From Raja brachyura (Eukaryota): a stretch of 64,000 nt of DNA. This document shows, piece by piece, positions 5,901 to 61,650 of the stretch. The DNA is taken from the NCBI GenBank assembly GCA_963514005.1, contig OY740789.1, positions 13,082,001-13,146,000 of the forward strand, written 5' to 3'. The translations under genes were made by a program, and so were the position numbers. The notes below the pieces were generated by a model. It worked only from the letters and a program-made list of their open reading frames with translations. It was not told where the DNA came from and ran no database searches. How positions within the stretch are numbered: position 1 is the stretch's first letter; the number at the start of each line of letters is the position of its first letter.

Positions 5901-8900
5901 AACATTATCAATAAGGATTAATAGTGAAAGTAATAACTGGGACATTATCAATTAGGATTAACAGTCACAGTATATTGGGAGGTGGGCTATTACAGAATGA
6001 CAGGTTCACATACCCTGCATAAATAAAATTAAGTAATTTATAATTTTAAATTAATGTTTTTAATACATTTTTCAGCTGCAAGATGTACTTTGAAATGGGA
6101 GCTTCAAAAGCCACTGGTTGCAAAAATAATAACTGGTGAAGGATGTGCAAGAGTTCAATGAAAACAAAAATCAACCTTTTTTAATGCTGGCAACATGCAA
6201 AAAGTTAGACTAATGGGCCTGTCCCACTTACACGACTTCTTCGGCGACTGCCGGTACCCTGAAAATGTTCAACATGTTGAAGATCCGGCGGCGACCAGAC
6301 AGATGCTACGACTCTTTGGGCGACCGAGGAGACTACGCACGACCATACAGGCGACACCCCGGCGACATGTCGCGGGGTGAAGCTTGTATGGTCATGGGTA
6401 GTCGCCAAAGAGTCGTACCTTGTTCTGGTCGCCGCTGGATTTTCAACAGGTTGAAAATTTTCGGCGACCTATGACGAGTGCCAGCAGTCGCCGAAAATGT
6501 TGCGTAAATGGGACAGGCCCATTGTGCTTCAGATGCCAAAATTGTCTGTGTCTTTCTGGGGTCGTAAGCCTCTCTTTCCAGATTTCCAGCTCAGAACAGT
6601 GGGAAAGCTCTGATTTTAAAATAGACATGTGAGGAATGGAGATGCTGGAAGTTGCAAAGAGAGACCACATAAACAGGGTAAATCTAAAAGGTGTGAAGAC
6701 AGACCTAATCGGACTAAAGAAAAGCAGAAAGTAGTTGGGGGAGGAAAAAAAGCAGTTTAAGCTATAATGGAGAGTGGTAGACCACTAACAAAATGTTATA
6801 GATATATATACTTCACTTTTAGAACACCAAACAGTACAGCATAGGAACAGGCCCTTTGGCTCACTATGTCTGTGCTGAATGCGATGCTAAGACTGAACTT
6901 TTCAAATGCTTCAAAAGGAGGAAGTGGAAGAATGTGTTCTGGGTTACTTTTGTGAATATTTGAAGAGCTCTCTTGTCTCAAAAGGTAATGTAAAACATTG
7001 GGTCCAGTGTCAACCCAAATTGCAATTTGGGGAACTTCACATGGAAGCTGATGCTTCCTTAGGAAAAGAAAGGTCTGCAGTCTAGACATATCTTGCACGT
7101 ATAGTTCTTAAATGCTCAATCGACTGGCGAAGCCTGATAGCAGACAGCTGCCTTTGCCTCACACTGGTAACATGTATTGATGGCACATGATTGCCATCTA
7201 GTGGTATAAAGTAATTCAGTGTAGGGAATTTAAAGCTCTTTTCATAACTTTAGACTTGAGATACAGCGTGGAAACGGCTCTTCAGCCCACTGAATCCCCG
7301 CCGACTAGCGATCACCACCGTACACTAGCAGTACACTAGCACTATCCAATAAACTAAGGACAATTTACAATTTTTACCAAAGCCAATTGATGTGTTTGGA
7401 GTGTGTGGAAACCGGAGCACCGGGAGGAAACCAACGTGGTCACAGGGAGAACGTACAAACGACGTACAGACAGCATCCGTAGTTGGGAATGAACCCGGGT
7501 CTCTGGCGCTGTGAGGCAGCAACTCTACCGTAGCGCCACCCCTTATATCCTTCACAAAAGCAATTCTTTTCAATTTGCAACGCTTCCCGGTTGCCTAAAC
7601 TACCCGGCCCAGCAGCAAGCCATTCAGGATAGAAACCTTTTAAATTCAGCTCTGATCTGAGCAAATCCTGTTGGCATTGAGGAGAAACAAAAGATGAGGC
7701 CGGCTTGTTGAGGTGGTATTAGTGTCTGGCTTGATTGTGATATCCTTCAGCATAAAGCAAATTTTACATATGGAAAATACCTTACAGGAGAATGATAAGC
7801 GAACCCCAGTATTATTAGGGAAAGGAGTAGAATTAGGCCATTCGGCCCATCAAGTCTACTCTGCCTTTCAATCATATAACCATATAACAATTACAGCATG
7901 GAAACAGGCCTTCTCGGCCCCTCCAGTCCGTGCCGACCATTTATTTTCCCCTCTATTTACCGACCATTTATTTTCATGGCTGATCTATCCCTCTCTAACA
8001 CCATTCTCCTGCCTTCTCCCCATAACCTTTGGCACCTGTATCAGTGGAGCTACACACAGGATAAATAACAGCCACTTGGTCAGGGTAACAAAAATTGCCA
8101 GCAGCCAAGGAATTATTATCCAGCACCAAACACCCCTTCAACTGAGAAAGGAGCACCAAGGACGAAAAGTGAATGTGTGAAATGCAGAAACTACAAGTTC
8201 ATAAATAAAATAACACAGTCGTTACTTTTTCAGAATTGGTATTTAATTGCCTGGATAACTGATCTGGAGATAGCAGTTTAAATCTCAATAACATAACTCG
8301 GAATTTTAAATGTAAGTAATTAACTATATCCAAAATATGAATGAAACCGGTATCAGTCCTGGTGGGCTGAAACATTGGGAATGTCGTTTAAAACTCATCT
8401 GCTATATGCTCTGAAATAAGCATAGCAATCAATCAGCTCATAGGTAATTAAGTCTGAGCAATATATGTGGATCAGAGCTCTAAACAAACACTCAAGATAG
8501 ACACAAAATGCTGGAGTAACTCTGCGGGACAGGCAGCATCTCTAGCGAGAAGAAATGGGTGACATTTTGGTTCGAGACCCTTCTTCAGATTGTGAGTCAT
8601 GGTAGAGGGAAACATAGAAGGGTAAGGTGTGAAAACACAGATCAAAGGGGACGATGATCAAGGAAATGTAGAATGGTTTATTGTTAGCTGAAGGGAAGGT
8701 GACAAGGCATACAATCAGTCAACTTTAATCAGGAGGACAGTGAAACTAGTCGGAGAACTAGGATGGAGGAGGGACGATGAGAGGGAAAGCAAGGGTTACT
8801 TGAACAGTCCTGATTGAACTGATCCAGGATGGGGAGGAATCTGCCTACAGACGAAGTGACACAGCTGGCATCTTGGTGCCATCGCAACAACATGGAGCAC

Positions 8901-11900
8901 AATGCTCTTAATCGGTGGAATTGATTGTGGACTTTAGGAGAGCTGCCCCTTCCCTCTCCCCACTGACCATCAACAACACCACAGTCACATCTGTGGAGTC
9001 ATTAAAGTTCCTTGGAACCATCATCTCCAGGGACCTTAAATGGGTGGCCACCATTGACTCCAGAGTCAAAAAGGGCCAACAAAAGATTACGCCGCTGAGA
9101 AAACGCAATCTGCCACAGGCATTGATGGTCCAGTTTTATACTGCCATCATAGAGTCTGTCCTCATCTTCTCCACCCTGGTCTGGTTTGGCTCAGCCAGTA
9201 AGCATGACATCCGGCGGCTGCAGTGCATCGTTCGATCAGCTGAGAAGGTTGTTGGCTGCAACCTTCCACCCCCCATTGACAAACTGTACACTGCAAGGGC
9301 CAGGAAGCGAGCGGCTAAGATCATCTCTGACCCCCCTCTCACCCTGGTCACAAACTCTTTGAATCACTTCCCTCTGGGAAGTGACTCCGAACTGTCAAAG
9401 CCGCCACAGCCAGACATAAAAATAGCTTTTTTTCCACGAGCAGTAGCTCTACTCAATAACCAAAAGTCTGTGGCCTCATTTTGCTCTGGTATTTTATTTC
9501 ATTCACATTTCTAAACTATAATGTTTTATTCTTAATGGTTTACTGCATGCCGTGTTGTTACTTGCGAGCAGAGCACCAGGGTAAATTCCTTGTATGCATA
9601 CATACTTGGCCAATAAACTTATTCATTATTATTATTATTCATAGTTGGCTAATAACATTTTTTCAATTCAACTTGAAGTTGGAGAAATCGATATTTATAC
9701 CGCTGGGTTGTAAGCTACCCAAGTGAAATATGAGGTGCTATCCCAATTTGCAATGTGCCTCCCTCTAACAGTGGAGGCCACCAAGGAACGAAAGGTCAGT
9801 ATTGGAATGGGAGGGGGAATTAAAGTGTTTAGCAACCAGGAGACCACATAGGCCTAGGCAGACTGATCCGAGGTGTTCAACGAAACATGAACACCGTTGT
9901 GCATGGACATAGGGAATTATGTGCAAGTGTCAAGGCAACTGAGCCCATTCTAAGCACATCGTAAACAAGAATGTAGGCCAACAAACATTAGGCCAACCTG
10001 AATGTCAAGAATTATTAAGCAAGTAATAATGCTCCTAGTAACACCCAGTAACCCTTATCTGAAGCTTTGGAATAAACAATAATATGTCATGAAAGGGGGG
10101 TGAGAAAGGGGGTAGGCGAGTTGTGATTTTATTTCTTTCTGAACAGTCCTTCAATAATCAGTGTCTATATTTGCATGTGAAGACTGTCCAGACAGAAACA
10201 ATTGCTGCCTGTTGTTCTATATTGCAGCACGAATCCAGGGGGATGTCAGCAGCAAGTATTCTCAGGTTGATTAAAGCATGCACATATTATAACACTTGTC
10301 CCCAGGAGTGCCTTCCAACTGCACAAGATTATTGCATCCATTTCCTGCCAAGTCATTCTTGTCAGCCAAAGAGTGCCACATTATATGTATCTTGTGTATG
10401 TATTAGTGTTCTTTGAAAGCTGGATTAAGACCATCCCAATACATGTGTAGGAATGAACTGCAGATATAGGAAACATGTGTGGGAAAGAACTGGTTTAAAT
10501 CGAAGGTAGACACAAAATCAGGCAGCATCTCTGGAGAGATGGAATGGGTGACATTTCAAATCGTTTGTAGAAGGGTCTCGACCCGAAACATCACCCATTC
10601 CTTCTCTCCAGAGATGCTGCCTGTCCCGCTGAGTTACTCCAGCATTTTGTGTCGACCATCCCAATGCATGTTCACCTGGAAATTTCAGAATAATTCTTGA
10701 CTTGAACCTTCACGAGAGCGACTAACTGCACTCAAATCACACAATTATAATGCCACAGCTACACATAAAACAAATTGCTTCGCTTCCACTTAATATGACA
10801 ATCCAATTCTTCATTTTCTACTGTAGGAAAGAAAAGCATGAAAGCTATCTCGACACTTGATGGATACCAAAATCATCTTGTTCGTAATATGTACGGGAAA
10901 ATTGTGTTGTGTTTATTTATAGTGAATCAGAGTGTAGTTTCCCGACAAAAAAAAATGTACCACTTCTTGTAATTTGAATGTTCAGAGCAAGCGTAAACAC
11001 ATTTTTCAATATTTGGAGAAATCCCCTTAAATGTCTGTCACGGACAAGCTCACATCAAAGTGAATCAACTGCTTCTTGCGCATTACATACCTCCAACTCA
11101 TTTTCATCAAAAATTGCTAAGAGATTTTCAGGAATTAACTCATTTAAACCTAGGGGGAAAAAAAGTGAAAATATAAAATTAGAAAAGGTTCATATAAGTT
11201 TATGACTTTCAGTAAATTAATTGTGATTGTTTCGCTCCACTACTGGAAAAAATATCCCAATTTATATTTTCCCCAAAACCCATCAAAATTACAGGGGACA
11301 AAACATAAGAAATTGAAACATCAAGCCTGCTGCACCACTCAGTAACATCATGGCCGAATTTATATCTCATCGAAGTCACCCATTTCTCTTGATGTCCTTC
11401 ATTGTTTTAAAACCATGGCCTCAACCTTGAGCATACTCGAAGACTGAGCAATTGCAGGCCACTTGGGTAGCAAATGCTAAAGTTCTGCAATCTTCTGAAT
11501 AAAATTACATTCACTCAACTCTAAATCTCTACTCATGTCTGGTATAACTAGAGAACAAGGACTCCTACGTTAGATTCCTATTTATCCACTATAGCTCCAC
11601 CTTCAACATCATAATACCACCCAAATTCACCTATAAACCCCTCTCCCCTCTGCCATTTGACCTCGACTTTTTAATCCACAGACCACAATTAGCAAGGGTA
11701 GACAACAAAATCTCCTCCATAATAAATCACAACAACGCCACTCTGCAAGAATGATTTCTCAGTCACTTATTATACTCTCTGTACACTCACAACTGTTCGG
11801 CAAATTCAGTTCTAACTGCAGCTACAAGTTTATAGATGACACCACTGTGGTGGGACGAGTTACAAACAATGACGAGATGAAGTGCAGAAAGGAGATACAG

Positions 11901-14900
11901 AACTTAGTGACAGAACTGTGTTTGGACAATAAACCCTCCCTCAATGACACCAAGATGAAGAAGTTAGTTATTGACTCCAGGAAGCATGGTGGTGTAAGGC
12001 CCCAATCAGCACCAATGGTGCAGAAGTGGAAATGGTTGAGAACTTCAAGTTCCTTGACATTAATATTACCCATGATCTGTCGTGGACCAACCACATTGAT
12101 GCAACAGAGAAAAAGGTACACCAATGCCTCTACTTTCTGAGGAGACTAAGGAAATTCCAACACCTCTACCAATGCCTCTACCTATTGAGGAGACTAAAGG
12201 GGCTGTCCCACTGCGGCAACCTAATCTGCGAGTTCAGAAGAGTTTGCTCTCGACTCACACTCGCAGCATGGTCGACACGAGGTCCTAGGAAGTCTTTGTA
12301 ACTCTCCTTCATGCTCGAGAGTAGTCTCCACGTATGTCGCGGCGTATTTTTTAAAATGTTGAAAAATGCCCGTGAGTAAAAAAAGGTCGCCATGGAAGAA
12401 AAAAGATATTTAACTCATAGGTTTAGCCGAGGTAGGTCGTAGCAGATTGGCATGTTATTTGTAGGTAATCGAGGGTAGTCGAAGGTAGTCGTAGTCTTCA
12501 ACACAGTCGAAAGGAGGTCGAAGGTCATCGAATGAAGTCGTCTTCACTCTCCACTATGCGGTGTCAAATTTTCCCGAAGTTAGTCAAAGCTAGTCTTCCA
12601 CATAGTCAAAGAAAGTCGAAGGAGGTCTTCTACATTGTCGAAGGAGGTCTTTCAAACTCTCCTAAACTCGCCAATTAGGTCGCTGCAGTTGGACAGACCC
12701 TTAAAGTGAGCATAGTGGCGCAGGTGGCAGAGTTGCTACCTAGCAGCTCCAGAGACAAACGTTTCAGGCTACTTAACCGGGATGAGTCTGCCACAATAAC
12801 TATTAAGTACATACATTAAGCACATGCAGGCCTAAGCTTGTTTAAAGTATCGCTCCAAATGTAGCCTAACTAAAATTCCTCCACAGACCACTGGAATGCG
12901 AGTAGTTTGCAACTAACTGTTTTAGCCAGAAGGTCACAAACAGGCTGTAAAGATGCTGGAAGACAAGCAGATAACATTAACCAACACATTTTACTTAAAA
13001 TAAGGCCTGTGGATCGCCCCAGGTAACTCTTTCAACAAATACATGCAGTGACCAAATTCTAGATTTGTAGTTCTCTGCTGGGAATGGCATTTGAATGCTC
13101 AAAATTTGACATAAAAGTACTGCACATAGTTACTCATATTAACAAATTTCTTGCTCCATGAACAGACGTGGAAAAGCTATTCTGTACATTCAACACAATG
13201 ATTTGATAGGTTAATTATGCTCAACTTCACCAATAAGAGCAATGGCTCTGCTCGTTTTATAATCGAGTTTCATTGTAACAAAGTCATACCTTTCAGGAAA
13301 TATTCCACTTCCTGGCGCACCTGATTGGCTAGCCTGTATTGTGCAAGCATGTTCAAGTAGAATATCTTGTTGTCGTTGGTTACTGGTACCTGCGCTCCAC
13401 CAGCTATCAGCTCTATAACCTGAAAGTTAAAAGTATATTCAAAGTGAAGATCCAAAAGGGGAAATGCAGAAGCTTTCTTGGCCATATTGCCAATGGAATC
13501 AGTGATGCTAAATGGTGTATTGCCTCTAAGGTCTTAGGACAAGGAAGCAATGGGAAAGAAGTTTAAAAAAGAATTCCCACGGGGATGGGAGGGGGACACA
13601 GCTGTGCAGCAACCCTATGCAGCTGCCACACAACTCCAGTGGCCCAGTTTCAACCTTGATCTCGGCTGCTGTTTGCGTGGACCTTTCACATTCTCCCTGT
13701 GACTGAGCCAGTCTCCTTCAGGTGTTTCAGCTCCCTCTCACATCCCAGAGATGCACTGGTAGGTTAACCGCCTCCTGTAAATTGTCCCCAGTGTAGGTAG
13801 TGGCAGGAGGCTAGTTGACAGACAATCAAGGCTAGTTGACAGACATATGCGGGGTGAGAAAAGGTTACAGATGAATGGTGGGGAGGAGGGGGTGGGGCCA
13901 ATGAGACTGCACAGAGCTGACATGATGGGCTGAATAGGCTCGATCTGTATTGTACAAACATGAACAATGCAGAGATAGACACAAAGCGCTGGAGTAACTC
14001 AGAAGGCCAGGCAGCATCTCTGGAGAAAAAGAATGAGTGACACTTCGGGTCGGGACTCTTCTTCAGAGTCACCTTCGCTCAGTTTTGGCTTTCTGTCACT
14101 GTAAAGCTACATTTCTATTTACCTTCGATTTAATCTGAATGAAGTCTCCTTACTGCCATGGATATTTTTTCACAGCCAAATCTGAAACGTCGCCTATCCA
14201 TTTTCTCCAGAAATGCTGCCTGACCCACTGAGTTACTCCAGCACTTTGTGTCTAACTATTGGTATAAACCAGCATCTGCATTTCTGTGTTTCTACATTTT
14301 AAACAATACAGAGGTTTTGTATTGTTCACATTTATGCATGCAATCTAGAGGGAGCCCATTCAGGTTCATATCAGAACCTGTACGGGATAGCCCAGATATT
14401 GGAGGTTTTGCAGTAGCAAGCAGAAGCAGAATCCTCAATGTAAGGGCATGTTTAATAAAGAGATTTTTCGGGAGTTAAGGGATTTATTAAAATACAACAC
14501 CCCAAATCCCAAGTATTAATCAGTACCATTGGCTAACAAGTACTTGAATTGACTGAGTGAGGCAATCTTCAGTCTACATGAAAGAAAGGAAGTAATGTTT
14601 CACCTGACTCGGTGAAAAGCAGCAAATATGTATTCCTAACTAGAGGGATAGTAATATATTTAGGTTAAGAGGCAAGAAGATAAAAGAAAAAAGATAAGTG
14701 TATTTTAAAATATCCATGGCAGTAAGCAGACTTCACTCAGATTAAATCAAAGGTAAATAGAAATTGTAGCTTTATAGTGACAGAAAACATAACAAATGAT
14801 TCTTAACAAGAATTAAAATCAAATGGATTGACCTCTGAGATAATTAGTTGACAAGTGAAATACACAGGGCAGAAAAAGTTGATAAGTATAGGAAGAGAGT

Positions 14901-50900: not shown

Positions 50901-52804
50901 AAGGACTGCTTGGGTTCCTGAAAGGAGTGGAGGGGGGAGGTAAAGGGACAAGTGTAGCATCTCTTGCGGTTGCAAGGGAAAGTGCCCGGGGAAGGGGTGG
51001 AGCAGGAGGGAAGGGTAGAATTGACAAGGGAGTTGCAGAGGGAACGGTCTTTGCGGAAGGCAGACGGGGGGGGGGGGGGGGAAGATGGGAAGATGTTGCG
51101 AGTGGTGGGGGTCACATTGGAGGTGGCGAAACTGGCGGAGGACTATGTGTTGTATGTGCCGGCTGGTGGGGTGAAAGGTGAGGACCAGGGGGACTCTGCC
51201 CTTGTTGCGAGTGGGGGAATGGGGAGAGAGGGCAGTGTTGCGGGGTATGGGGTGCAAGCCTCATCTATAGTGGGGGAGGGGAATCCACGTTCTCTGAAGA
51301 ATTAGGACATTTGTGATGACCTGGTGTGGAACACCTCATCCTGGGAGCAGATGCGGTGTAGACGGAGGAATTGGGAATAGGGGATGGAGTCCTTACAGGA
51401 AGCAGGGTGGGAGGAAGAGTAGTCCAGGTAGCTGTGGGAGTCAGTTGGTTGAATATTCAGTTGGTTGAATATAGTCCAACTTGTGCTCACAGACTTGTGG
51501 TCTCCTCAAATATATCCTCATTCATTTGTCTTTGCTACCATGAAAACAGAAAATCTGGGAGTCAAGCAGCATCTGTGAAGAAAAGCGGAGTTCACTTCTC
51601 TCTGCAGATGCCATTTGTTTGTTGAGTTTCTTCAGCATTTTCTGTTTATATTTCAGGTTTGTTGCTGTTTTTTGGCTTTTATGTTGTCTTGCAAGTCTTG
51701 CCCGCAGAGGACAATCATTTACAACTTCCGAGCCCTAGGATTGCCATATTGCAATGTTTACTGCCCATAAGGAAAGACAACCATACTCAAAGACCCCATC
51801 TGCTTTATCTTCTGAGGAACAGGCACAGTGGTCACACGTTGCCAAAAACCTATTCCAAAATATCAGAGACTACACTGAAGCACCGTTACTCCTTTGAGAG
51901 ATCACTCTGATCATCACCTGCAATGATGTCCTACGCAGCCTGTCCCCACTGGATTCCCTAGGAGCACTGTTGTATACCCCTCACATCACTGTAGCATACT
52001 GCCCAGTAGCTGTAAGTGTTGTAGGCACTGTAGTGTGTCCCCTCAAATGCTAGATTCAGAGACCACATTTGCTGGGTTGATTGTCAACGGCGACGATAAT
52101 CACAACACGTTAACTAACGGCAACACTACCAGTTTCAGTGTAGCGATACACAGGAAAGCCTTGCAAACAAAACCTTGTTCTGTGAATCTTGTAAATGAGG
52201 CTCTCAATTTTTATAAGAAAGAACTGCTGATGCTGTGTTTAAATCGAAGATAGACACCAGATGATGGAGTAACTCAGCGGGACCGGCAGCATCTCTGGAG
52301 AGAAGGAATGGGCGATGTTTCTGGACGAGACCCATCTTCAGACTGAAGAAGGGTCTCGACCCGAAACTTCACCCATTCATTCTCTCTGGACATGCTGCCG
52401 GCCCCGCTGAGTTACTCTCAATTTGTGCTATTCTCAATTTTTATAGGTCTTCTATTAGCAATATTAGAGCAACTCACAAATCTCCTTTACTACCATTAAT
52501 AGATTGCAATGAAACCTAGCTCAGGGTATCCATTGACAGTGCTATACCACAATTAGAGTAAAGTGCTTGGACTTTTAACAAGTAAAGTCAAACCGAAATT
52601 ACAGCAACTTCCTCCAGAAATACAGGGAACATCTTAAAATGCAGTGAAAGGACAATATTTGCATTCATGAAATGAACATAAAATCAGTTTCTTCATCATG
52701 CTTGATTGACAATCCCTTTAATAATGCTAAAAAACAGCTTAAGTGCTCAAATTTAGAAATCTACGGAAGGAATTCAAATTGCACTCACCAATGACGACAA
52801 TCAT
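2858..52804 (-). CDS. AREL1: AREL1, apoptosis-resistant HECT E3 ubiquitin ligase 1; spliced CDS of 18 exons, 2469 nt, 822 aa
   Basis: Hand-spliced exons give [25 protein letters not shown]...[14 protein letters not shown]...[11 protein letters not shown]...[40 protein letters not shown]. This is collinear with vertebrate AREL1 as I recall it. Every junction is phase-compatible. Confidence 0.97.
3290..4015 (+). mobile_element. Internally deleted Rex1/Babar-like LINE remnant
   Basis: Endonuclease-like TWLHEDIP...[10 protein letters not shown], short tandem repeats at 3425-3540, and a 3' end (aaattccttgt...ttggctaataaa) shared with the copy at ~9590. Confidence 0.55.
4168..4343 (-). CDS. AREL1: AREL1 exon VMKWFWTVV...LPTAHT(C), HECT C-lobe
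   Basis: cacag acceptor, gtgagt donor, 176 nt, [16 protein letters not shown] motif. Confidence 0.96.
5025..5123. mobile_element. Short fold-back Penelope-terminus-derived insertion
   Basis: 14-bp TSD caacatgaatctaa at 5011-5024 and 5124-5137. Confidence 0.7.
5329..5418 (-). CDS. AREL1: AREL1 exon [30 protein letters not shown]
   Basis: ttccag acceptor, 90 nt; donor is non-canonical AAG|GCAAGT. Confidence 0.93.
5775..5980. repeat. Degenerate minisatellite, unit about 39 bp, about 5 copies
   Basis: Recurring gggacattatcaattaggattaatagtcaaagtaataac-like unit. Confidence 0.7.
6214..6521. mobile_element. PIF/Harbinger-like MITE
   Basis: TIRs tgggcctgtccca...tgggacaggccca, preceded by TAA, CpG-rich and non-coding. 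Confidence 0.8.
7255..7542 (-). mobile_element. tRNA-derived V-SINE (HE1-like)
   Basis: tRNA-like head ggtggcgc..ggtagagttgctgcctcacagcgccagagacccgggttc and core tgtctgtac..gtttgtacgttctcc. Confidence 0.75.
8496..8803 (-). mobile_element. Penelope 3'-terminal fragment with a degenerate hammerhead-like core; resumes at about 9670-9890 after the LINE insertion
   Basis: Similar to the terminal module at 35990-36212. Confidence 0.65.
8808..9645 (+). mobile_element. 5'-truncated Rex1/Babar-like LINE (RT C-terminal part)
   Basis: ORF 8915-9514 ELIVDFRR...[13 protein letters not shown]...[10 protein letters not shown]...VWFG; tail aataaacttattc(att)n. Confidence 0.8.
10447..10653. mobile_element. 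Fold-back Penelope-terminus insertion with a partial hammerhead-like core
   Basis: Inverted arms; 18-bp TSD (1 mismatch) at 10429-10446 and 10654-10671. Confidence 0.75.
11091..11149 (-). CDS. AREL1: AREL1 exon (G)[19 protein letters not shown]
   Basis: cccctag acceptor, gtatgt donor, 59 nt, HECT F-x-x-x-E-L-E motif. Confidence 0.94.
11640..12197 (+). mobile_element. Degenerate Rex1-like LINE RT fragment
   Basis: [17 protein letters not shown] and [22 protein letters not shown] motifs in shifted frames. Confidence 0.7.
12198..12701. mobile_element. PIF/Harbinger-like MITE with TAA TSD
   Basis: TAA|aggggctgtcccactgcggcaacctaat...attaggtcgctgcagttggacagaccct|TAA, with internal gtcgaagg repeats. 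Confidence 0.82.
13290..13419 (-). CDS. AREL1: AREL1 exon [18 protein letters not shown]...EVEYFLK(G)
   Basis: tttcag acceptor, gtatga donor, 130 nt. Confidence 0.95.
15330..17425 (+). mobile_element. 5'-truncated, frameshifted L1/Tx1-like LINE (ORF2 RT to C-terminus, T-rich 3'UTR, A-rich tail)
   Basis: [62 protein letters not shown]; aataaa plus A-rich tail at 17389-17425. Confidence 0.88.
17850..18160 (+). mobile_element. CR1-like LINE 3' fragment
   Basis: gaatgagctgccggaggaggcagttgaagcagg...catttagacaagtacatg, typical of CR1 3' regions. Confidence 0.6.
18293..18418 (-). CDS. AREL1: AREL1 exon [42 protein letters not shown]
   Basis: Translated by hand (absent from the ORF track); tttcag acceptor, gtagag donor, 126 nt. 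Confidence 0.94.
18810..19095 (-). mobile_element. V-SINE (HE1-like), diverged
   Basis: Similar to the copy at 7255-7542. Confidence 0.65.
19651..19678 (-). ncRNA. Minimal type I hammerhead-ribozyme-like core, intact copy on the AREL1 sense strand
   Basis: Reverse complement reads CTGAAGA-A-GGGT(CTCG)ACCC-GAAA-C-GTC. Confidence 0.6.
20177..20204 (+). ncRNA. Minimal type I hammerhead-ribozyme-like core, intact copy
   Basis: ctgaagaagggtctcgacccgaaacgtc. Confidence 0.6.
20330..20509 (-). CDS. AREL1: AREL1 exon [21 protein letters not shown]...GLRMHYK
   Basis: ttcag acceptor, gtaatg donor, 180 nt. Confidence 0.96.
20735..21230 (-). mobile_element. CR1-like LINE fragments
   Basis: [32 protein letters not shown]1 ORF2 C-terminal motif. 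Confidence 0.65.
21698..21807 (-). CDS. AREL1: AREL1 exon (A)[36 protein letters not shown]
   Basis: HECT D-x-G-G-x-x-R-E-W-F motif; tttcag acceptor, gtaagt donor, 110 nt. Confidence 0.95.
23440..24230 (+). mobile_element. Highly degenerate Rex1-like LINE endonuclease region
   Basis: [10 protein letters not shown] and DHCCTTIK..Y...[13 protein letters not shown]-type motifs in shifted frames. Confidence 0.6.
25876..26175 (+). mobile_element. V-SINE (HE1-like), near full length; a partial copy lies at about 25505-25637
   Basis: ggtggcgcagcgg...gagacccgggatcaatccc head and gtctgcacggagtttgcacgtcttccccgtgacc core. Confidence 0.78.
26400..26475 (-). CDS. AREL1: AREL1 exon [25 protein letters not shown](A)
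   Basis: accag acceptor, gttagt donor, 76 nt. Confidence 0.94.
26788..26909 (-). CDS. AREL1: AREL1 exon (G)[40 protein letters not shown]
   Basis: Long polypyrimidine tract then ttcag acceptor, gtgggt donor, 122 nt. Confidence 0.95.
27898..28039 (-). CDS. AREL1: AREL1 exon [47 protein letters not shown](G)
   Basis: ctcag acceptor, gtaagg donor, 142 nt. Confidence 0.95.
28635..28712 (-). CDS. AREL1: AREL1 exon [26 protein letters not shown]
   Basis: ttctag acceptor, gtgggt donor, 78 nt. Confidence 0.95.
31330..31745 (+). mobile_element. CR1-like LINE 3' end
   Basis: [10 protein letters not shown]...[19 protein letters not shown]. Confidence 0.78.
34535..35885 (+). pseudogene. Penelope RT plus GIY-YIG endonuclease coding remnant
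   Basis: ORF 34535-35791 plus shifted C-terminus [24 protein letters not shown]. Confidence 0.85.
36120..36147 (+). ncRNA. Hammerhead-ribozyme-like core in the Penelope 3' terminal region
   Basis: ctgaagaagggtctcgacccgaaacgtc about 235 bp after the endonuclease stop, where PLE hammerheads are expected. Confidence 0.68.
40092..40615 (+). mobile_element. Second, shorter 3' fragment of the same L1/Tx1-like family
   Basis: Collinear with about 16860-17400 (aattatggcctgataatggcaaa...ggaattaaaccgatttacggac...aataaa). Confidence 0.85.
40708..41326. repeat. Nested inverted duplication: ~107-bp arms plus an internal perfect palindrome at 41131-41193
   Basis: 40708-40814 is the reverse complement of 41220-41326 with about 2 mismatches. 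Confidence 0.88.
41489..41733 (-). CDS. AREL1: AREL1 exon (E)[24 protein letters not shown]...[13 protein letters not shown]
   Basis: aatag acceptor, gtagga donor, 245 nt. Confidence 0.94.
42085..42558 (+). mobile_element. Penelope 3' fragment (endonuclease C-terminus plus terminal module, hammerhead-like core at 42466-42493)
   Basis: [16 protein letters not shown] in translation; ctgaagaagggtctcgacccgaaatgtc. Confidence 0.8.
42784..42858. repeat. Perfect palindrome with 37-bp arms and a 1-nt spacer, made of Penelope-terminus sequence
   Basis: gtagacaaaaatgctggagaaactcagcgggtgaggc-a-gcctcacccgctgagtttctccagcatttttgtctac. Confidence 0.92.
43154..43334 (-). CDS. AREL1: AREL1 exon [21 protein letters not shown]...[26 protein letters not shown]
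   Basis: Translated by hand; tttcag acceptor, gtaagt donor, 181 nt. Confidence 0.93.
43370..43672 (-). mobile_element. V-SINE (HE1-like)
   Basis: Same head and core as the other copies. Confidence 0.75.
44290..45665. mobile_element. Nested CR1-like LINE fragments: a plus-strand copy at about 44876-45418 inside an older minus-strand copy
   Basis: [43 protein letters not shown] (+); [11 protein letters not shown]...[16 protein letters not shown] (-). Confidence 0.82.
46268..46437 (-). CDS. AREL1: AREL1 exon (G)[37 protein letters not shown]...QIKE
   Basis: tttag acceptor, gtgagt donor, 170 nt. Confidence 0.95.
46545..46780 (-). mobile_element. Degenerate Penelope endonuclease 3' fragment
   Basis: [24 protein letters not shown]. 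Confidence 0.7.
47824..48061 (-). CDS. AREL1: AREL1 exon [18 protein letters not shown]...[11 protein letters not shown](G), filamin-like repeat
   Basis: tatag acceptor, gtaggt donor, 238 nt. Confidence 0.96.
48459..48533. repeat. Near-perfect hairpin: 33-bp arms (1 mismatch) and a 9-nt loop
   Basis: ccaaaattcacagcctgggcttaatggagactt-ttcataatt-aagtctccattaagcccaggctgggaattttgg. Confidence 0.9.
49764..49990 (-). CDS. AREL1: AREL1 exon (G)[22 protein letters not shown]...GRILTFRIH, including a hydrophobic segment
   Basis: tgcag acceptor, gtgcgt donor, 227 nt. Confidence 0.95.
50380..51454 (-). mobile_element. 5'-truncated Penelope copy of the same family as 32393-36212
   Basis: [46 protein letters not shown] region and terminal module. 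Confidence 0.9.
52216..52431. mobile_element. Fold-back insertion with back-to-back hammerhead-like cores, centred at 52342
   Basis: ...catcttcag-a-ctgaagaaggg...; 14-bp TSD tctcaatttttata at 52202-52215 and 52432-52445. Confidence 0.82.
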
Positions 52805-52860
52805 CAGGTCTCTTCTGGCAGTGCAAAATGTGATGCTAGAGGCAAAAAACACTGTTCCCA
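52789..52860 (-). CDS. AREL1: AREL1 exon (V)[23 protein letters not shown](G); the ATG equivalent to mammalian Met1 is at 52804-52802
   Basis: ttcccacag acceptor, gtgagt donor, 72 nt; RDLMIVVIG matches the RDLMFYVIG I recall from orthologues. Confidence 0.88.
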
Positions 52861-52968
52861 CTGTGGGAAAAAAGAGTCAGAATTAAGGACACAAACTTCC
52901 CTCAACTGGGGGTAAATGGAAAAGTGTGAATAGTTTTTTTCAAAATAAATTACAAAATGTTCACATAC

Positions 52969-53174
52969 CCATGGACCACTTTTCAATTCTGTGCCTTTGG
53001 GTCAAGTTATGAAAAAACCTAACCGTGCTCCCACTACACGTGTCCCCTCGAGGACCTTCCTTCCAAACTTGCGGTAATCAATGTAGAAGTAGCCCCAGTC
53101 GGTGAGTTTCCTGTGACTGGTCGCCAAACTGGAGCAGATCAGTTATGTTGCTGATGATTCCTAGCGATTTCAAA
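52969..53174 (-). pseudogene. AREL1: Disabled upstream AREL1 exon (formerly coding N-terminal extension, probably now 5'UTR)
   Basis: atacag acceptor, gtatgt donor, 206 nt. The entry/exit frame reads LKSLGIISNITDLLQF...LH*...HNLTQRHRIEKWSM with an internal TGA. The +1 frame reads DWGYFYIDYRKF. Confidence 0.7.
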
Positions 53175-54019
53175 CTGTATGGGGACAAGGAATTGGAAAG
53201 CTGATATATGACTGGTGTCAATTAAAAATGCAACCCATCTCAAACACTAATGCATTTATTAGAATGCTGAGGCTACAACAGCTTTGGCAGAGAGCAGGGA
53301 ATTAGCATACACTTTCTTAAGGTATTGTTAACTTCAACTTTAAACAAGGAAAAAAATGAATAATAAACTTTACAAGAACTATTATGTAGCATTTGGCAGA
53401 AGTGAATTGCAAAGCCAAATAAGGTGAATAAATCCATGATCTAAGCTTATGTTACGTATAGTTTTATTAAGTCTTAAGACATTGATCAGCTGCCTAGTAG
53501 AGTATTTGGAACTATGTTACACTATTCAAGAAGCAACTGGATTATGTTGTAGTGAGTAATGTGATAGCCAAACAAGAAAAAATGGTGAAGATAAGAAACC
53601 TTATCTTGCCAGTTGCTACCATGGCGGAAGAAGAAAAGTTAACTACACTGCAGAGTAATTATAGCTACATTGTCAACCTAGTAAAATTAATCCCCTCAGG
53701 TATTAAAGCAATGGGATGGTTCTGTTGTCATTTTGGGACAGATTAGGGATTGAGGGAAAGTTGACATTTGGAATAAAATTCTATCAAAATATTAGCCTAC
53801 GGATTGGGGAGATGGGGATTTAGGGTGTGGGAGGTGGTGAAATGGCAAATGAGTTTGGCCTTTTTGTCCGCTCCCTTTCTGCAAAGTATTGCCAGCATTA
53901 TTTGTTATAATTTTACAACTTAATGCATTTTTTTTTACCAGAATGCCCATTTCATCTAAGAATGTGACATATTCCCAGACGAGTCATTTTAAATTTTACC
54001 CTGGAGCCATTTATTAAAA

Positions 54020-54177
54020 CCAGGTAGACAAAAATGCTGGAGAAACTCAGCGGGTGAGGCAGCATCTATGGAGCGAAGGACTTGGTGATGTTTCGGGTCA
54101 AGACCCTTCTTCAGTCTGAGTTTCGCCCGCATTTTTGACTACTTTCGCTTTTCCAACATCTGCAGTTCCTTCTTAAA
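54020..54177. mobile_element. Fold-back Penelope-terminus insertion
   Basis: 12-bp TSD catttattaaaa at 54008-54019 and 54178-54189; minus-strand hammerhead-like core at about 54087-54114. Confidence 0.75.
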
Positions 54178-56208
54178 CATTTATTAAAATCAGAATCAGT
54201 GTAAACATCAACACAACTATACTGTTTTATTCTTAATGGTTTATATTTTATTCTCAATTGTTTACTGCATGTCATGTTGTTACTTGCGAGCAGAGCACCA
54301 GGGCAAATTTCTTGTATGTGTACATAATTGGCCTATAAACTTATTCATTCATTCAACTTTGACAAAAATATATTGTTACCCTATGAAAACTCGGTCTCGG
54401 TGACAAAGTAGTCAGAGTAATACAGCATGGAAACAGGCCCTTCGGCTGATTGAGTCCACACCAATCATCAACCAGATTTTGAAGAAATCTTGTTTATTCT
54501 CCATTAACACCCCCAGATTCTATTACTCACAAACACACTAGGGGCAATTTACAGTGGCCAATTAACATACCAACCAGCAGTACATCTTAGCAATGTGGAA
54601 GGAATATTGTTTACAATATTGTCCATTGAAACAGGAGCACCCAGAGGAAACCCACGCAGTCATCGGGGGAATGTGCAAACTTCTGCACAGGCAGCACCCA
54701 AGGCCAGGTGTGAGTCAGTGACTCTTCTAATGGCACCACTGTGTTTAGTTTCATTGATTATTTGCTGTGACAGTCCATGTAAAGTCAATGCCTTGGCTTG
54801 GATCCACAAAGCTTCCTTTGTTAAGATTCAACAATTTGTTTTACCTTTAAAAGGACTACAAACAATAATTGCAAGGTTATTACTGCATCACACACATATC
54901 AGATGTCACACAGGCTGAATTCATTCCTTATGTACTCTACATATCGCAGCTGAATACTTCCCTCAGACATCAATATAGAAATATTACAAATCAGGAGTGA
55001 GTAAGCCTTCAGATCCTCAAAGCTGCTCTGCCATTTAGGAAGATCACCACCACTGCTCAGATTGTGACTCAATTTCTACATTCCCACATGCCTGTGGAAG
55101 CATTTTACCTTTTTGTCAAGATTCTATCGATCTTTGCCTTAAATATATAGAAAAACCCTGGTTCCAGTTCTCAATGGGGAAGAGTTCCAAACACTGGAGA
55201 GAATAAAAACTGCTTTATCTCTGCCTTTGATGCGTAAGCCCTTAACTTCAAAAAGTTACCCTTAATTCTAGAATCTCCTGAAATAGAAAACATCTTTGCC
55301 ACATCCACCCAACCAATCCTTCAGCATACCATATCGTTCAAATGTTTCCCTATTAAAGTCCAGTGCATACACACCCAGCCTGTCTTACCTTACAAGACAA
55401 TTTGCCCATTTCAGATATTAGACCAGTAAACCTTCTCTGACACCTATTTTTTTTACATAAATCTTTTTGAAGATAGATTCTGACAATTATTGCGATCAAA
55501 TTCATTCATTTTCCCAAAAGTAAATGAAGAAACAGCTCAGCTAGAAAATGTGACATCAATAAAATTGTAATTACAGTCAATTATATCTGGTTAAAATAAA
55601 TCAGAAGTTGCATGCTGAAATATCAATTAGGGTTTGAAATAAAATCGGTAGATCTATTCTAGATCATGCCCAGTACTCGCCCCAACATCTTTCCACCTTG
55701 ATAGTGAGCTTTTACTAGATTGTGCAAATGGCTCACAAACCCAACACTTTGTGAATCTGGCAGAGGGAGAAAATAATTGTAAAACTTTGTTTGGAGACAC
55801 AAACGACTGCATATCCTGGAAACTTGAGCAAATAAAAACACAAACTGCTGGAGAATCCCAGCAGGTCAGGCAACATCTGTGGGCTGGACGGACAATGATT
55901 TGGATTGGGGCGCCACTTCAAGACTAAAATAGAGAGGAGATCGCTGGTAGAAAGAAAGAGGTGAGGGGAAGGGATGGAGGAAGAGTTGGCAAGTGATAGG
56001 TAAATCCAGATAAGGATGGGTAGATTGGCGGATGAGTCAGGTGGGGAGAGAAGGCTAGATAATTTTGCTTATGCTTCTTGTATGTTACTATTGGGATACA
56101 ATTTATAGATGAGCCCTCATTCCTAATAAGACTTGCTTTATCCAGCCACACCAGCATCATATATCCAAGAAAGGAAATTCAGCATTGTAATTTTCTTTTA
56201 AAACATAC

Positions 56209-56358
56209 ACGTGGTGATAATCTTCCAAACCCTGTGCACACAGCCACTTCTGCAGTGTTAACTTCTTTAACAGCCGGCGTTGGACAGCTTTTATCTCTTG
56301 AATCACACTGTCATCCACGGAATTTTCAAATATTAGCACTCCTCTAAACTATGCACAT
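56209..56358 (-). pseudogene. AREL1: Disabled upstream AREL1 exon: (D)VHSLEEC* then a shifted frame ...LQKWLCAQGLEDYHH(V)
   Basis: ttttatttgcag acceptor, gtatgt donor. 150 nt is incompatible with its entry and exit phases. WL-x-x-x-GLE-x-Y resembles a SAM-domain start. Confidence 0.68.
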
Positions 56359-56571
56359 CTGCAAATAAAAAAAGCAATGGGCTGAGTTTTTTCCTCTTGG
56401 AATAGAACCAGATCATCAATAGCAATACCAGTGAAATAAAGGCCCATATAATATATAATGCACAAAAACCCTGAAGGAAAAAGCAAAACAAACATTACAA
56501 TGCTAGATATCATAAATAAAAATAGAAAATGATGGAAACACTCAGCAGGTCCTGGCAACATGTTGCGGAGT

Positions 56572-56735
56572 GTCACCAGGGGGTCGCCTGTATGGTCGTG
56601 AGAGGTCTCCTAGTCACCCAAAGAGTCATAGCGTCTTTCTAGTTGCCCCTGAATTTTCAACAAGTTGAAAATTTTTGGAGACCTGTGACGGGTGCTGGCA
56701 GTCGCCGAAAAGGTCGCGCAAGTGGGACAGGCCCT
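56572..56735. mobile_element. Right half of a Harbinger-like MITE
   Basis: Ends aagtgggacaggccct-ttaa; interior matches about 6370-6520. Confidence 0.7.
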
Positions 56736-59700
56736 TTAACGTTCAGTTAAACCGAAGATAGGGGATCGAAGAGTAGAACAAAAAGGGGAAAACAACAAGA
56801 GTGCCAGAAAACGGGTACATCCGACAGTTGAAGTATAATAAATGTTATGTTTTACCAACAGCAGGGCTGTGGGACATGCCTATGTGGTTGAAAGAAAAAC
56901 GGAGTCAAGATCACAGATGTATGACAACAGAAAATATATTTTTCAGACAGAAAGTAAAAGTTACCTAAATTTGGGGAAATTGATATTGAAGGCTAGAAAA
57001 TTGGTCATTGCTCTTCAAGCTTGCAATGCGCTTTGTTGCGTTAGTGCAGGAGGGCATAGACAGATAGGTCAGTGTGGCACTGAGATGGAGAATCAAAATG
57101 GCTCACAACCAGAAGCTCCAGGTCACTTCTACAGACCCAATACGGGTGTATTGCAAAAATATCCTCCAATCTGCATTTGGTTCCTCCAAGGTGAACACTA
57201 AATGAAATACACTAAATTGGAAGACGTGTAAGTGATTTGTGTATTTTGTGTATTAACCAGCATCTGCAATTCCTCGTTTCCACAGAGGTACGAATGAATT
57301 GCTATTTCATCTGGAAAAACTGAGTCCTGAATGATGGAAAAATGTTAATGTTGCAGGTTGATATTTCATCAGAATTGAATGCATCGGAAAAATTACAAAC
57401 CAAAAAATTGACTATATGGTCTGGATCTTCATGAGAACACGCAATTTCATTGCACCCTGGTGTATATGACAATAACATAATCTAACCTAACCCTAACCAC
57501 TTTTTTTAGGAGAGTCATACAGCATGGAATCATGCCACTTAATCCGCCGAGTCCTCGCTGACCATCGATCATCATTCACACTAGTTCTATTATCTCACCG
57601 TCTCATCCAAATCACCGAGGCCAATTAAACTACAAACCTTTGAGATACGAGAACTCCACATGGACAGCACCCCAGGTCAGGATGGAACCTAGGTTTCTGG
57701 TACTGTAAAGCAGCAGCTCTACCAGCTGCACCATATATAGAGAGAGGGTTTAAGCTGAACTTACTTCTGACCCATTACTACATTTTCAAGATCCAGCGCA
57801 GCAGGCATAATGTTCTTATTGAAAAAGATATGAAGTGTTATCAAAAGTAGGTCAACGCTGACTTAATTTGATAAATCTACCTTGGGCATTAAATTGAAAT
57901 AATAACTGTAATTAACATTATTAAACATTAGTTACTGCTGTGAAAACTATCCCTGAACTATCGAAGTTAATGAATATGTACAAAGTTGTTACCGTCAAGT
58001 CGAGTTTATTGACATATGCACTAGTGCAGTGAGTTACAGTAAGCACAGGCACATAGACAACATTCAAAAACATAAAGTATACATAGATTACACACATTCT
58101 ACAAGTGTGAAAAGACCTCAAAAAATAAGACATTAGTACAAAACATTGATAAAATTGCTGGTAATGTTGATAAAAAAAATATTAAATTCAAATTGACCTG
58201 GAAGATCATCCTGCACATCCCGTTAAGGGTGTTTGATTCTATCTGTGTGGCATTTACATCCTCTTTACAACAAAAAGGAAGAATGACTGAACGTTATTGC
58301 CTTCCATCACAGTGATCACTGTGGTGGATGTTTATGCTAGATTGTATTGTGTGTTGTGTTCTTTTAATTGTATGGCTGCAAGATAACTCAAATATCATTG
58401 TACCTTAATTTGTGCATGGGGGGGGTGAGAGGCATTTGTTCCAAACATCAAAACGACCCCTCACTTTCACCCACCTATTACTTGCCATGCTTTGTCTTCA
58501 CTCTCCCCTATTCCAGCTTTCTTTACTCCTTCCATAGTCAGTCTCAATCCAAAACATCACCAATCCATGTTCTCCAGAGATGCTGCCTGACCCACTGAGT
58601 TACTCCAGCCCTTTGTATCCTTTTGCGTAATATTATTACTCATCCCATATCCTTGTCCAAGAAGTAATAGTCAAGCATCTCATATCTGCATTTGATTTTT
58701 ACATTCAGAACAGCTCATGGTGGACAGCCAGTCAAGTTGGATTATTTCATGTAAATATAAATTGGATTGCTTGGCATTATCAAACTATAGTGGCACAGAT
58801 CTTTAATGTAGGACAGTATTGAAATGGGGTCACTGTACTTTTTTTCAGAACTTTAGTTGCTTTTTATGTGATTTAAAATACTTCTAAAAACAAGGTCAAG
58901 AGGAGTTCTGAATGAGAAGGACATTGAACTCCCAAGAGTCAATTGCAAGATAAAAGCATTTCAAAAACTGATCCTTTGCCTTCTCATGCAAATGCCTCGA
59001 CAGTAAAAAAAAGTTACGATATAAAAGACACACCAACTGTTCACATGAATGGTCACAGAATGATTATAACAGTTAAACATTAAATAAAAACATTTCCTTT
59101 GTAACAATACACTTAGTTATCAAGGTACATTCCTACGAATGAGAATAATATTGGACTCAGTACTCAGTGGTGTCTTTTTAGCATTACAGATGCATTACTA
59201 ACAGCACCACTGTGCAAGGAAGCTGGTGTGAAACCCTGCCTCCTGCAAGCGCTCATACAGTTATGAAACAGTGATCTCATTACCACACACCACGGAACTG
59301 TGGCAACCTGCAGGAATAACAATGAGGGATGGAGCTGGTCAGATTGGATCCGCTGGTGGGCTGCTCATTGCTGGCATGTGGGGCTGACAGTATTCTGGCT
59401 GGCAGGGTGAACATAGGCCTTTCCTCAGTACTGGTATTTAACGGACTGCCCCGCTCCCTCGTCACCACCAAGGAAGCTGTGGGTTTCAGGTCTCTTTATT
59501 TGGCTACACAGTTGTCACACTCCAGAGATTTTGCTATGACAACAAGCCTGACAGCTAGCAGTGGAGAGGGCAGAGGTTTGTGCCAGCTCTCCAGTACAGC
59601 GGTGCATGGCCCAAGTGAATATCTTCAAATGGTTATGTGCCTATGAGTGTTCAGACTCCAGGACTAAGTGAAATATAATGAATCAGCTTTTTGCCGAGGT

Positions 59701-61336
59701 GTGCAAAACAGAGTAACAGTGCACACTTAAATATATTTCATTAGTTAAAAATAATTTTCTGAGCGTGCTATGAAAGGAAATGTATAATGCAAGCCATTTT
59801 TCTTTATTAAAGGTCATTTCAAATATAGCTACTTCAGCTATAAAACACCACATTTGTCTCACAGCTATCATTATTGTCGTTGTGATCAGCACATAGCTGT
59901 CATTTTCCAACTGCCTGCGGTTTGACCCTGCTTCACAGATTATACATAGGCAATTAGGACAACATATTCTATTCTGTAACTATCTACTGGGAAGTCAGTG
60001 ACTTGCAATCAAGCAAAGCCTAAATATGGATACAACAATAATCTAATTTTTTTATGAATTAAACATGCACCATGCTAAAAATTAACTGTATCAGGATAAG
60101 CTACTTGCAAATTCTGTCTTGCAATCAAATCAGTTTTCAAATTTAGCAAGCAGAAGTCAGGTGCATCTCTGCATGAGGGAAACAAAAAATATTGAGGTAT
60201 ATCCACACATTTTCCATAATGGATTCCTGCCAGTTGGATAAAATAGACACAGCCGGTTGCACATGAAAATTTGGCTGCCTGCCCTGTTCTCTTTGTTGCA
60301 TCAACGGTGACCTTGGAAAAATGCCACTGTGGCAATGCATACACCCCAAATAAAAAAATAAGGCACACTGCTCACTTTCCATCGACTGACCGAAAGTACG
60401 ATGTCAAAATGTTTTTAAAATGTGACTTTGATCTTAGTTTTCAAATCCGGAGTTTAAAGATTAGCGTTCAAAACACCTGATAAACACCTCACGGGATTGA
60501 CACATTTCACTCCTTAGCACATTCTAGTCATGGTGATTTTCCACTGCAACACATTTGCATTTAGATATTGGATGCCCAATAGCTTAAATTTGTCTGGGGT
60601 GCAACAGCCACAGTAATAAAATGTAACTGACATAAAAATCATTGAACTACATAAAGTATTGGAAAACTGGAGACATTTGAAAACTGATTTATAACTTTCA
60701 TTTTATTTAGTATTTTAGTAAAGTAAAAAGATCACAAGGAGATACACAAAAGTATTTAGACAAAATAAACTCAAAACCCTGTTAGAAATGCTAATATCAG
60801 TAGTGCACAGCATTTTTTCAAGAGGTAGTTAAAAGACCAGTAAAGATAAACCAGAAATGTAAACTGGCCAGATTATAAAGCTCATATCTGGGCAGCAAAA
60901 CGTATTGGCCTAAAGAAAGACACAAAGTTCTGGAGTGACTCAACGGGTCAGGAAGCATCTGTGGAGAAAATCGATTGGTGACACTTTTTTAGACCCCACA
61001 GGTTGTGCTGAAGGAATTTAGGAACCATAAATATGGAATACATCTCAAAAGATATTCTTCACCATCACAGTCCATCTCTGTATTAGAACCTAATCTCAAC
61101 TATCTCCCTCCCCACCACCACCACCCAATTTTGATTTGACCACTTTGAGTAAACACATTCAATGCACGTAAAAAAATTCTGGAGTATTAATCTTTATCTT
61201 AGTCCACACATTTAGTTTGATATTCTGTCCTTTCTATCATTGTTATTACCCGCTGCCAACTGTTATTACCCCAATATGAGAATTAGATACAATTCTAGAA
61301 AGAGTATATTTGGAACAAACCTCTCACTTCTGGGTA

Positions 61337-61650
61337 AGACACAGAATGCTGGAGTAACTCAGCAGGACAGGCAGCATCTCTGGAGAGAAGGAATGGATGA
61401 CATTTCCGGTCGAGACCCTTCTTCAGACTGACGTCAAGGAGGAGGGAGATAGATGGATAAAGAAATGTGAAGGTATGAAAACAATGCAAAGGGAATGGAG
61501 ATCAAGGAAAATGCAAAATAGATTATTGTTAGCTGGGAGAAGGTACCAACAAAGCAAACAGAGATAAAATGGAGTCGGAGACAGTAAGACTGGCCGGAGA
61601 ATTGGGAAGGGATGGAGAGAGAAGGAAAGCAAGAGTTTCTTGAAGTGACT
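61337..61650 (-). mobile_element. Penelope 3'-terminal insertion
   Basis: 16-bp TSD (1 mismatch) ctctcacttctgrgta at 61321-61336 and 61651-61666. Confidence 0.75.

Follow-up and report, generated by a model that had tools for sequence, protein, structure and literature searches.

A Penelope-like element with a minimal hammerhead motif and short, mostly decayed motif copies in the AREL1 introns of the skate Raja brachyura

Results

We analyzed a 64,000-nt window of the Raja brachyura genome (GenBank assembly GCA_963514005.1, contig OY740789.1, positions 13,082,001 to 13,146,000), in which a sequence-only reading had listed 19 hammerhead-like sites, attributed to a Penelope family and placed inside one gene. 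An exon scan together with a protein search identified this gene as AREL1, a HECT E3 ligase, whose minus-strand exons extend from 62943 to 2861. For most exons, identity is 92 to 97% to the Leucoraja erinacea protein and lower to a stingray and two sharks. All 19 listed sites fall between AREL1 exons; thus, the copies are intronic, and the exon map that brackets them bears out the placement in a single gene.

The long carrier of the motif is a broken, 3.8-kb Penelope-like element (PLE) with a reverse transcriptase (RT), a GIY-YIG endonuclease (EN), and one pseudo-long terminal repeat (pLTR) (Table 1). An intact motif copy lies 64 nt before its 3' end, confirming the assignment of this copy to the terminus of a long Penelope. 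Pfam matches to RVT_1 and GIY-YIG were weak and under the cut-off; the element is ~50% identical to PLE-type proteins of 880 to 960 aa (E < 1e-130), and the RT is followed by a C-terminal GIY-YIG domain, the coding region of this copy being split over several frames. PLE copies in the window also show a tail, inverted truncated copies, and target-site duplications, all of which (the tail being 30 to 40 nt) are described in PMC8557442 for endonuclease-containing (EN+) PLEs. A CX4CXXC linker is kept in the copy at 50380-51450 and in 115 of 120 homologues and is deleted in the long copy. According to PMC8557442, a CX2-5CXXC linker between RT and EN marks Neptune, and Nematis has a linker motif of similar kind; by the linker motif in its relatives, the long element points to a Neptune-type PLE.

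The long element begins at the tail and stops at the pLTR end, making exactly one unit, and its open reading frame (ORF) starts after the tail (~32469). In this one case, a stop at a protein-bound site or a circular template could account for the one-unit length. The ends overlap by 4 to 5 nt only, and a 5' pLTR is absent. About 850 nt of the ORF (32963-33809) are C-rich and are matched neither by the tested homologues nor elsewhere in the window; a low-complexity insert and an intron are the candidates. The element is nested in a small terminal-inverted-repeat element (32204-32392 plus 36225-36461, with ends at ~32204 and 36461), and pieces related to this host element lie near 6200-6520 and 56570-56750. 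Besides the 36120 copy, the motif is located within the pLTR of the PLE copy at 50473 and of the remnants at 8588 and 42466. RT fragments resembling long interspersed nuclear elements (LINEs) are present at 8912-9514, between two PLE remnant pieces, and at 15334-17039.

In type I numbering, the motif runs from C3 to A9 and continues with one additional A, a stem II of 4 bp whose first pair is G-C, GAAA, C15.2-G16.2, U16.1, and C17. Each of the three intact copies has a helix I of 2 bp; among the 15 copies compared, changes in this helix are one-sided only, and the first stem II pair is G-C in 12. Loop 3 is absent, and the stem III palindrome is CG in 4 of the 17 gapless copies that we scored, four divergent or gapped ones (30050, 40918, 49081, and 55921) being omitted. 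A descriptor combining the extra nucleotide, G10.1-C11.1, and a palindromic 15.2-16.2 gave 4 matches in the window versus 0 in 100 shuffles, and the extra base was used by all 4. These three features (the extra nucleotide at 9/10.1) are described as recurring in the minimal hammerheads of PLEs by Cervera and De la Pena 2014 (PMC4209133), where 56 motifs from 40 species carry the class features and helix I is mostly 3 to 5 bp and in some cases 2 bp, as in Culex, D. virilis, and Oikopleura (Fig. S3 of that paper). Two caveats had been entered, the additional A before stem II and a stem I of about 2 bp; the former is a defining feature of this class and the latter a published variant within it, and therefore neither sets the motif apart. 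Its earlier identification as a PLE-type minimal hammerhead holds with respect to the core, the G-C start of stem II, the loop-less palindromic stem III, and GUC. Judged by sequence, the skate motif agrees with the minimal type I hammerhead published for metazoan PLEs.

A window scan found the exact 28-nt motif at 19651-19678(-), 20177-20204(+), and 36120-36147(+), the three sites already called intact. With up to 3 mismatches allowed, there were 12 matches versus 0.00 expected from 100 shuffles; with up to 6 edits, fuzzy matching regained 18 of the 19 listed sites, and nhmmer picked up the 19th (49081), so that every site listed is present. The nhmmer profile, made from 15 copies, recovered all 19 sites and gave 40 fragments in the window compared to 0 in the reversed window. 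The motif is spanned by 21 of these fragments, two of them additional to the list (40919-40850(-) and 55919-55802(-)). Because the 40760 and 41274 copies have their upstream flank in common, as one local inverted duplication, and the 52341 and 52343 copies share one target-site duplication, we count ~19 independent events. The local inverted duplication (40700-41340) includes the motif copy plus flank. The repeat unit occupies 3,090 of the 64,000 window bases (~5%). When relatives' contigs were compared with 35000-36300, summed depth, which is not a copy number, was highest at 36100-36187. Exact-motif scans of metagenome contigs and of viral contigs gave 0 matches in each.

The 3' ends fall into two classes, at model positions 98-105 (pLTR end; 23 of 40 fragments) and 125-134 (tail end; 8 of 40), which correspond to 84 and ~117 nt after the stem II start. 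The tail follows the pLTR end in the longer short copies, and relatives' contigs (X17) have a loose end behind 36209. Target duplications of 7 to 13 bp were found at 6 of 10 insertions tested; five are 9 to 13 bp, and the chance expectation for one of at least 9 is 0.4%. Moreover, head-to-head pairs lie within one target duplication at 52210-52434, 54017-54177, and 42748-42858, and four copies run into PLE coding sequence, continuously or across one LINE insertion. Together, the shared 3' ends, target duplications, head-to-head pairs, and coding connections lead us to read the short units as PLE products. The short copies belong to several subfamilies, mostly other than that of the long element, and look like truncated or inverted PLE products rather than a separate family. 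The claim that PLEs spread the motif is thus upheld by the copies joined to coding sequence and by the PLE 3' ends. We do not retain the term non-autonomous family, since four copies are linked to coding sequence and the others have the 3' ends, the tail, and the inverted layouts of PLEs. Altogether, we put at about 85% the probability that the motif is the minimal hammerhead of the PLE pLTR and that the scattered copies are short, mostly decayed pLTR reverse transcripts made by the element's own protein. That protein would reverse-transcribe pLTR RNA into short copies, and the motif of the source elements would cut after GUC as a dimer only, probably needing protein help.

A ribozyme-cut template was considered as the source of the copies and rejected: none of the 40 fragments begins at the predicted cut (model position 34) or up to 3 nt from it, the nearest starts being at 28 and 40. 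Relatives' contigs are weak for cut-site ends, having been compared with a reference unlike the majority subfamily right after the cut.

Two other origins of the short copies were weighed. The ~95-nt unit might be a true non-autonomous family akin to short interspersed nuclear elements (SINEs) or retrozymes, with its own master copies and start and with PLE protein supplied in trans. Fixed 5' and 3' ends are typical of a SINE-like unit, 10 of the 21 motif-spanning copies start within ~3 nt of C3, and PLE-derived, non-autonomous non-LTR retrozymes have been proposed, with one chondrichthyan genome positive (bioRxiv 10.64898/2026.07.22.740005). That preprint requires tandem units, each with a complete hammerhead, yet no tandem array occurs among the 40 fragments, 19 of which begin at scattered internal points. 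Together with the 19678 short copy, which is 97.9% identical to the long-element end over 95 nt, and the majority subfamily, which is attached to coding sequence at 8588 and 42466, this makes a SINE-like family unlikely. The other origin, in which the ends of a full-length element recombine and leave a solo pLTR, appears highly improbable, as it cannot yield head-to-head pairs in one target duplication or many internal 5' ends. A homology of ~95 bp is also short for recombination. Solo pLTRs are partly credited to recombination or deletion in PMC3846280, and under this origin a constant 5' end and an unbroken target duplication would be expected.

The start near C3 defines a cluster of 5' ends just before the core (20177 and 55921 were assigned to this class by eye). 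Another 2 of the 21 motif-spanning copies, one event duplicated, extend ~15 nt 5' of the core, and 9 run on into pyrimidine-rich pLTR sequence. Among the rows listed for relatives' contigs, loose ends lie before 36116 (965), 36117 (534), and 36118 (512) in X1, with an agreement of 0.30 to 0.38, and at 36116 (131) and 36118 (57) in X15. The consensus of the 36116 row is rich in pyrimidines and probably stems from other subfamilies, and an A>G variant may lie behind the 36118 row. At 36117, the row is AT-rich with a terminal G, and three well-supported joints reach 36117 after a single G; this would fit a cap-derived G, contigs being unable to reveal RNA ends. Present both in the window and in relatives' contigs, this pile-up is the less-described point of our data.

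The site before the core forms a small palindrome (TCAG-T-CTGA), at the center of which the 52341/52343 pair meets, and also resembles a 3' splice site. Rotifer PLEs have palindromes at inverted junctions and an initiator (Inr)-like pLTR motif, TCACT (PMC3846280). Our leading guess for the cause of the cluster, at a little under even odds, is an initiator-like start site; the small palindrome or a structure comes next as a tentative second, and a 3' splice site is the least probable of the three. As to a possible intron between the stop codon and the AG preceding the core, its donor lacks conservation across the six copies in which this region is present, and the joints listed for relatives' contigs include no GT..AG joint into 36119; the splice hypothesis appears weakened.

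Joints going back 39 nt, from 36154 to 36116, were seen in 8 contigs in X1 and 2 in X15. One joint row leads from 36147 to 36116 with the 7 letters of the majority subfamily between, and others lead from 36150, 36153, or 36154 to 36117 with one G between. They are rare head-to-tail core duplications, for which self-insertion at ATT and a template jump are candidates. In one conceivable scheme, the short copies would be strong-stop-like complementary DNAs of transcripts that start 3 nt before the core, a start that would limit stem I to 2 bp, and the 38- to 39-nt duplications would be RT jumps between two RNAs joined as a double hammerhead. We regard this as a long shot, self-insertion at the ATT right after the cut site being simpler; if true, the jumps would be genomic evidence of PLE ribozyme dimers in vivo.

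Most copies have decayed. The full core is present in 11 of 17 gapless copies, and core, stem II, and Watson-Crick stem III (ACGU) are all kept in 3; the description "ribozyme-bearing" was therefore overstated for the 14 that lost one or another. The stem III CpG is changed in 13 of 17 copies, 12 of them via CpG-type transitions. It is gone (36144-36145 and equivalents) in 10 of 11 majority-subfamily copies, with 10 of 22 cells changed versus 11 of 66 at three other CpGs (P = 0.01); this excess could stem from the mutability of the sequence context, from founder variants, or from selection acting against motifs that are intact. Between two subfamily consensuses, the 28-nt motif is identical and 12 of 61 downstream columns differ (P = 0.015), which suggests that the motif is constrained in source elements, though not catalysis in particular. 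In five tailed copies, an 8-bp stem pairs the pLTR with the tail; two-sided changes are absent in this stem.

Several observations weigh against reading the motif as a PLE hammerhead with decayed copies. The counts rest on one 64-kb window plus relatives' contigs. An Rfam scan of the window up to E = 1, a check proposed with the sequence-only reading, returned 10 matches and no hammerhead family. Stem II covariation, likewise proposed, was assessed in 15 closely related copies, too little diverged to show it: compensatory change was seen in 0 of 8 pairs, and covariation was not above shuffles, of which 467 in 500 equaled or exceeded it. Conservation is not specific to catalysis, because loop 2 and N7 are conserved between the subfamilies too. 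In the 11 majority-subfamily copies, 4 of 121 non-CpG core cells are changed versus 61 of 636 downstream (P = 0.02), in copies chosen by motif and with subfamily mixing raising the downstream figure; such a better-kept core poorly fits pure neutral decay, though ascertainment may be responsible for it. Finally, in five folded stretches, stems I and II were never adopted in prediction (-3.9 to -4.2 kcal/mol versus minimum free energies of -7.9 to -12.5), and the stem II/III dimer (-12.7 versus -19.7 to -28.4 kcal/mol) was also above the minimum, so that the active fold would be disfavored as monomer or dimer.

Self-cutting is predicted for three copies at most, and whether the motif cuts at all in source elements is close to a coin toss, tilted slightly toward no. 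A non-catalytic job, such as an internal promoter or a protein-binding or RT-positioning signal, with cutting lost, is a possible but doubtful reason for its retention. The 2-bp stem I and the disfavored fold agree with this, as do the core mutants of an Anolis PLE, which insert normally with no RNA ends mapped at the cut site (PMC11167929). The stem III ACGT lies ~27 to 30 nt after the proposed start, comparable to the downstream element RGACGTGY of the internal promoter in D. virilis Penelope (PMC2377424), and the rotifer TCACT is Inr-like (PMC3846280); this promoter likeness was judged by eye. However, all catalytic positions co-occur with the extra nucleotide and the palindrome, as in the 56 published motifs, and the Anolis motif does cut when protein is present, C3G/G8C rescuing it (PMC11167929). 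A non-catalytic job bears on activity only and is compatible with the favored origin of the short copies as PLE reverse transcripts.

With regard to the host gene, motif-spanning copies are oriented 12 minus versus 9 plus, and a strand bias is not clear. The intact 19678 copy is sense to AREL1, which would allow co-opted ribozymes to regulate AREL1 pre-mRNA, an idea that we find barely credible: the lone 19678 copy is without a dimer partner, the intact copies at 20177 and 36120 are antisense, 13 of 17 copies are without the stem III CpG, and the intact copies are simply young. The intronic copies give no sign of function and are likely inert. Table 1 lists the features of the window; elsewhere, a near-perfect 77-nt hairpin at 48458-48534 has sub-threshold microRNA matches in Rfam.

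Table 1. Positions of the Penelope-like elements, the hammerhead motif, and its other copies in the window
Feature	Position	Strand
Minimal type I hammerhead motif, intact; predicted cut after 36147	36120-36147	+
Site before core; 5' ends and joints of copies cluster	36116-36119	+
PLE, broken, unit-length, RT and GIY-YIG, one pLTR at 3' end	32393-36211	+
13-bp target-site duplication, left copy	32380-32392
13-bp target-site duplication, right copy	36212-36224
Tail (~40 nt), sequence after pLTR end in longer short copies	32393-32435	+
PLE, 5'-truncated: RT C terminus, CX4CXXC linker, endonuclease, then motif with C3>G	50380-51450	-
PLE, 5'-truncated: endonuclease end, pLTR, decayed motif; LINE-like fragment between pieces	8490-9886	-
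PLE, 5'-truncated: endonuclease end and pLTR; stem III of motif reads AUGU	42088-42557	+
Short copy of long-element subfamily, sense to AREL1; target duplication of 9 bp; motif intact (19651-19678), with pLTR end and tail	19537-19680	-
Copy with intact motif (20177-20204), majority subfamily, partial pLTR before	20173-20271	+
Head-to-head short-copy pair, joined at base before core, one 11-bp target duplication	52210-52434
Short copy and tailed, inverted partial arm; target duplication of 12 bp	54017-54177
Decayed copy and inverted partial arm	10496-10657
Decayed copy (14066-) and inverted partial arm	13971-14288
Decayed, interrupted copy (21430-) and inverted partial arm	21401-21493
Decayed, pLTR-bearing copy (22343+) and tailed, inverted partial arm	22012-22435
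Fragment, motif only	30014-30047	-
Decayed short copy	37169-37268	+
40760(+) and 41274(-) copies, local inverted duplication; older divergent copy 40919-40850(-)	40756-41278
Decayed copy, another subfamily	49077-49161	+
Old divergent copy with tail	55802-55919	-
Decayed copy, pLTR before	61333-61430	-

Discussion

The skate motif has in common with the minimal hammerheads of PLEs in PMC4209133 the CUGANGA box, the extra nucleotide, a G-C stem II start, GAAA, the palindromic 15.2-16.2, UH, and the location in the pLTR; its 4-bp stem II and 2-bp stem I rank among the shorter ones published. In that paper, such motifs are mostly single and dispersed, are ascribed to truncated PLEs, and number thousands per genome in coelacanth and Xenopus. 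Cartilaginous fish are absent among the entries of its Table S1 and Fig. S3 that we examined, and a literature search, judged in part by titles, retrieved no paper on the motif in these fish, with examples possible in Lunse et al. and in the retrozyme preprint, which covers one chondrichthyan. The class has been in print since 2014, and the skate copies extend it.

For Poseidon of Anolis carolinensis, Frangieh et al. 2024 (PMC11167929) report internal RT starts at two sites bounding a 30- to 40-nt tail, the distal one 111 to 118 nt after the stem II start, as well as use of uncleaved RNA, extension of both DNA strands, and cleavage by the ribozyme solely when protein is present. Two 3' end classes bounding a tail, at a similar distance after stem II, are common to both systems, and the lack of window fragments starting at the cut fits insertion from uncleaved RNA. 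In contrast to Poseidon, the linker here is Neptune-like and the ORF starts after the tail, not at stem II, a comparison that on our side uses sequence alone. The non-LTR retrozymes of the preprint resemble the skate units in being PLE-pLTR-derived with a type I hammerhead, but here tandem units are lacking in the window and the 39-nt go-back joints are rare and confined to relatives. D. virilis Penelope (Schostak et al. 2008, PMC2377424) likewise combines a pLTR with a short-helix-I hammerhead; in that species, an intron terminates several nucleotides upstream of the core, whereas neither a conserved splice donor (six copies) nor a spliced joint (joints listed) was found here.

Thus, a hammerhead class described in 2014 is now extended to a skate genome. 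With their abundant short copies and defined ends, elasmobranch genomes are suited to reading the PLE insertion mechanism from its fossils.

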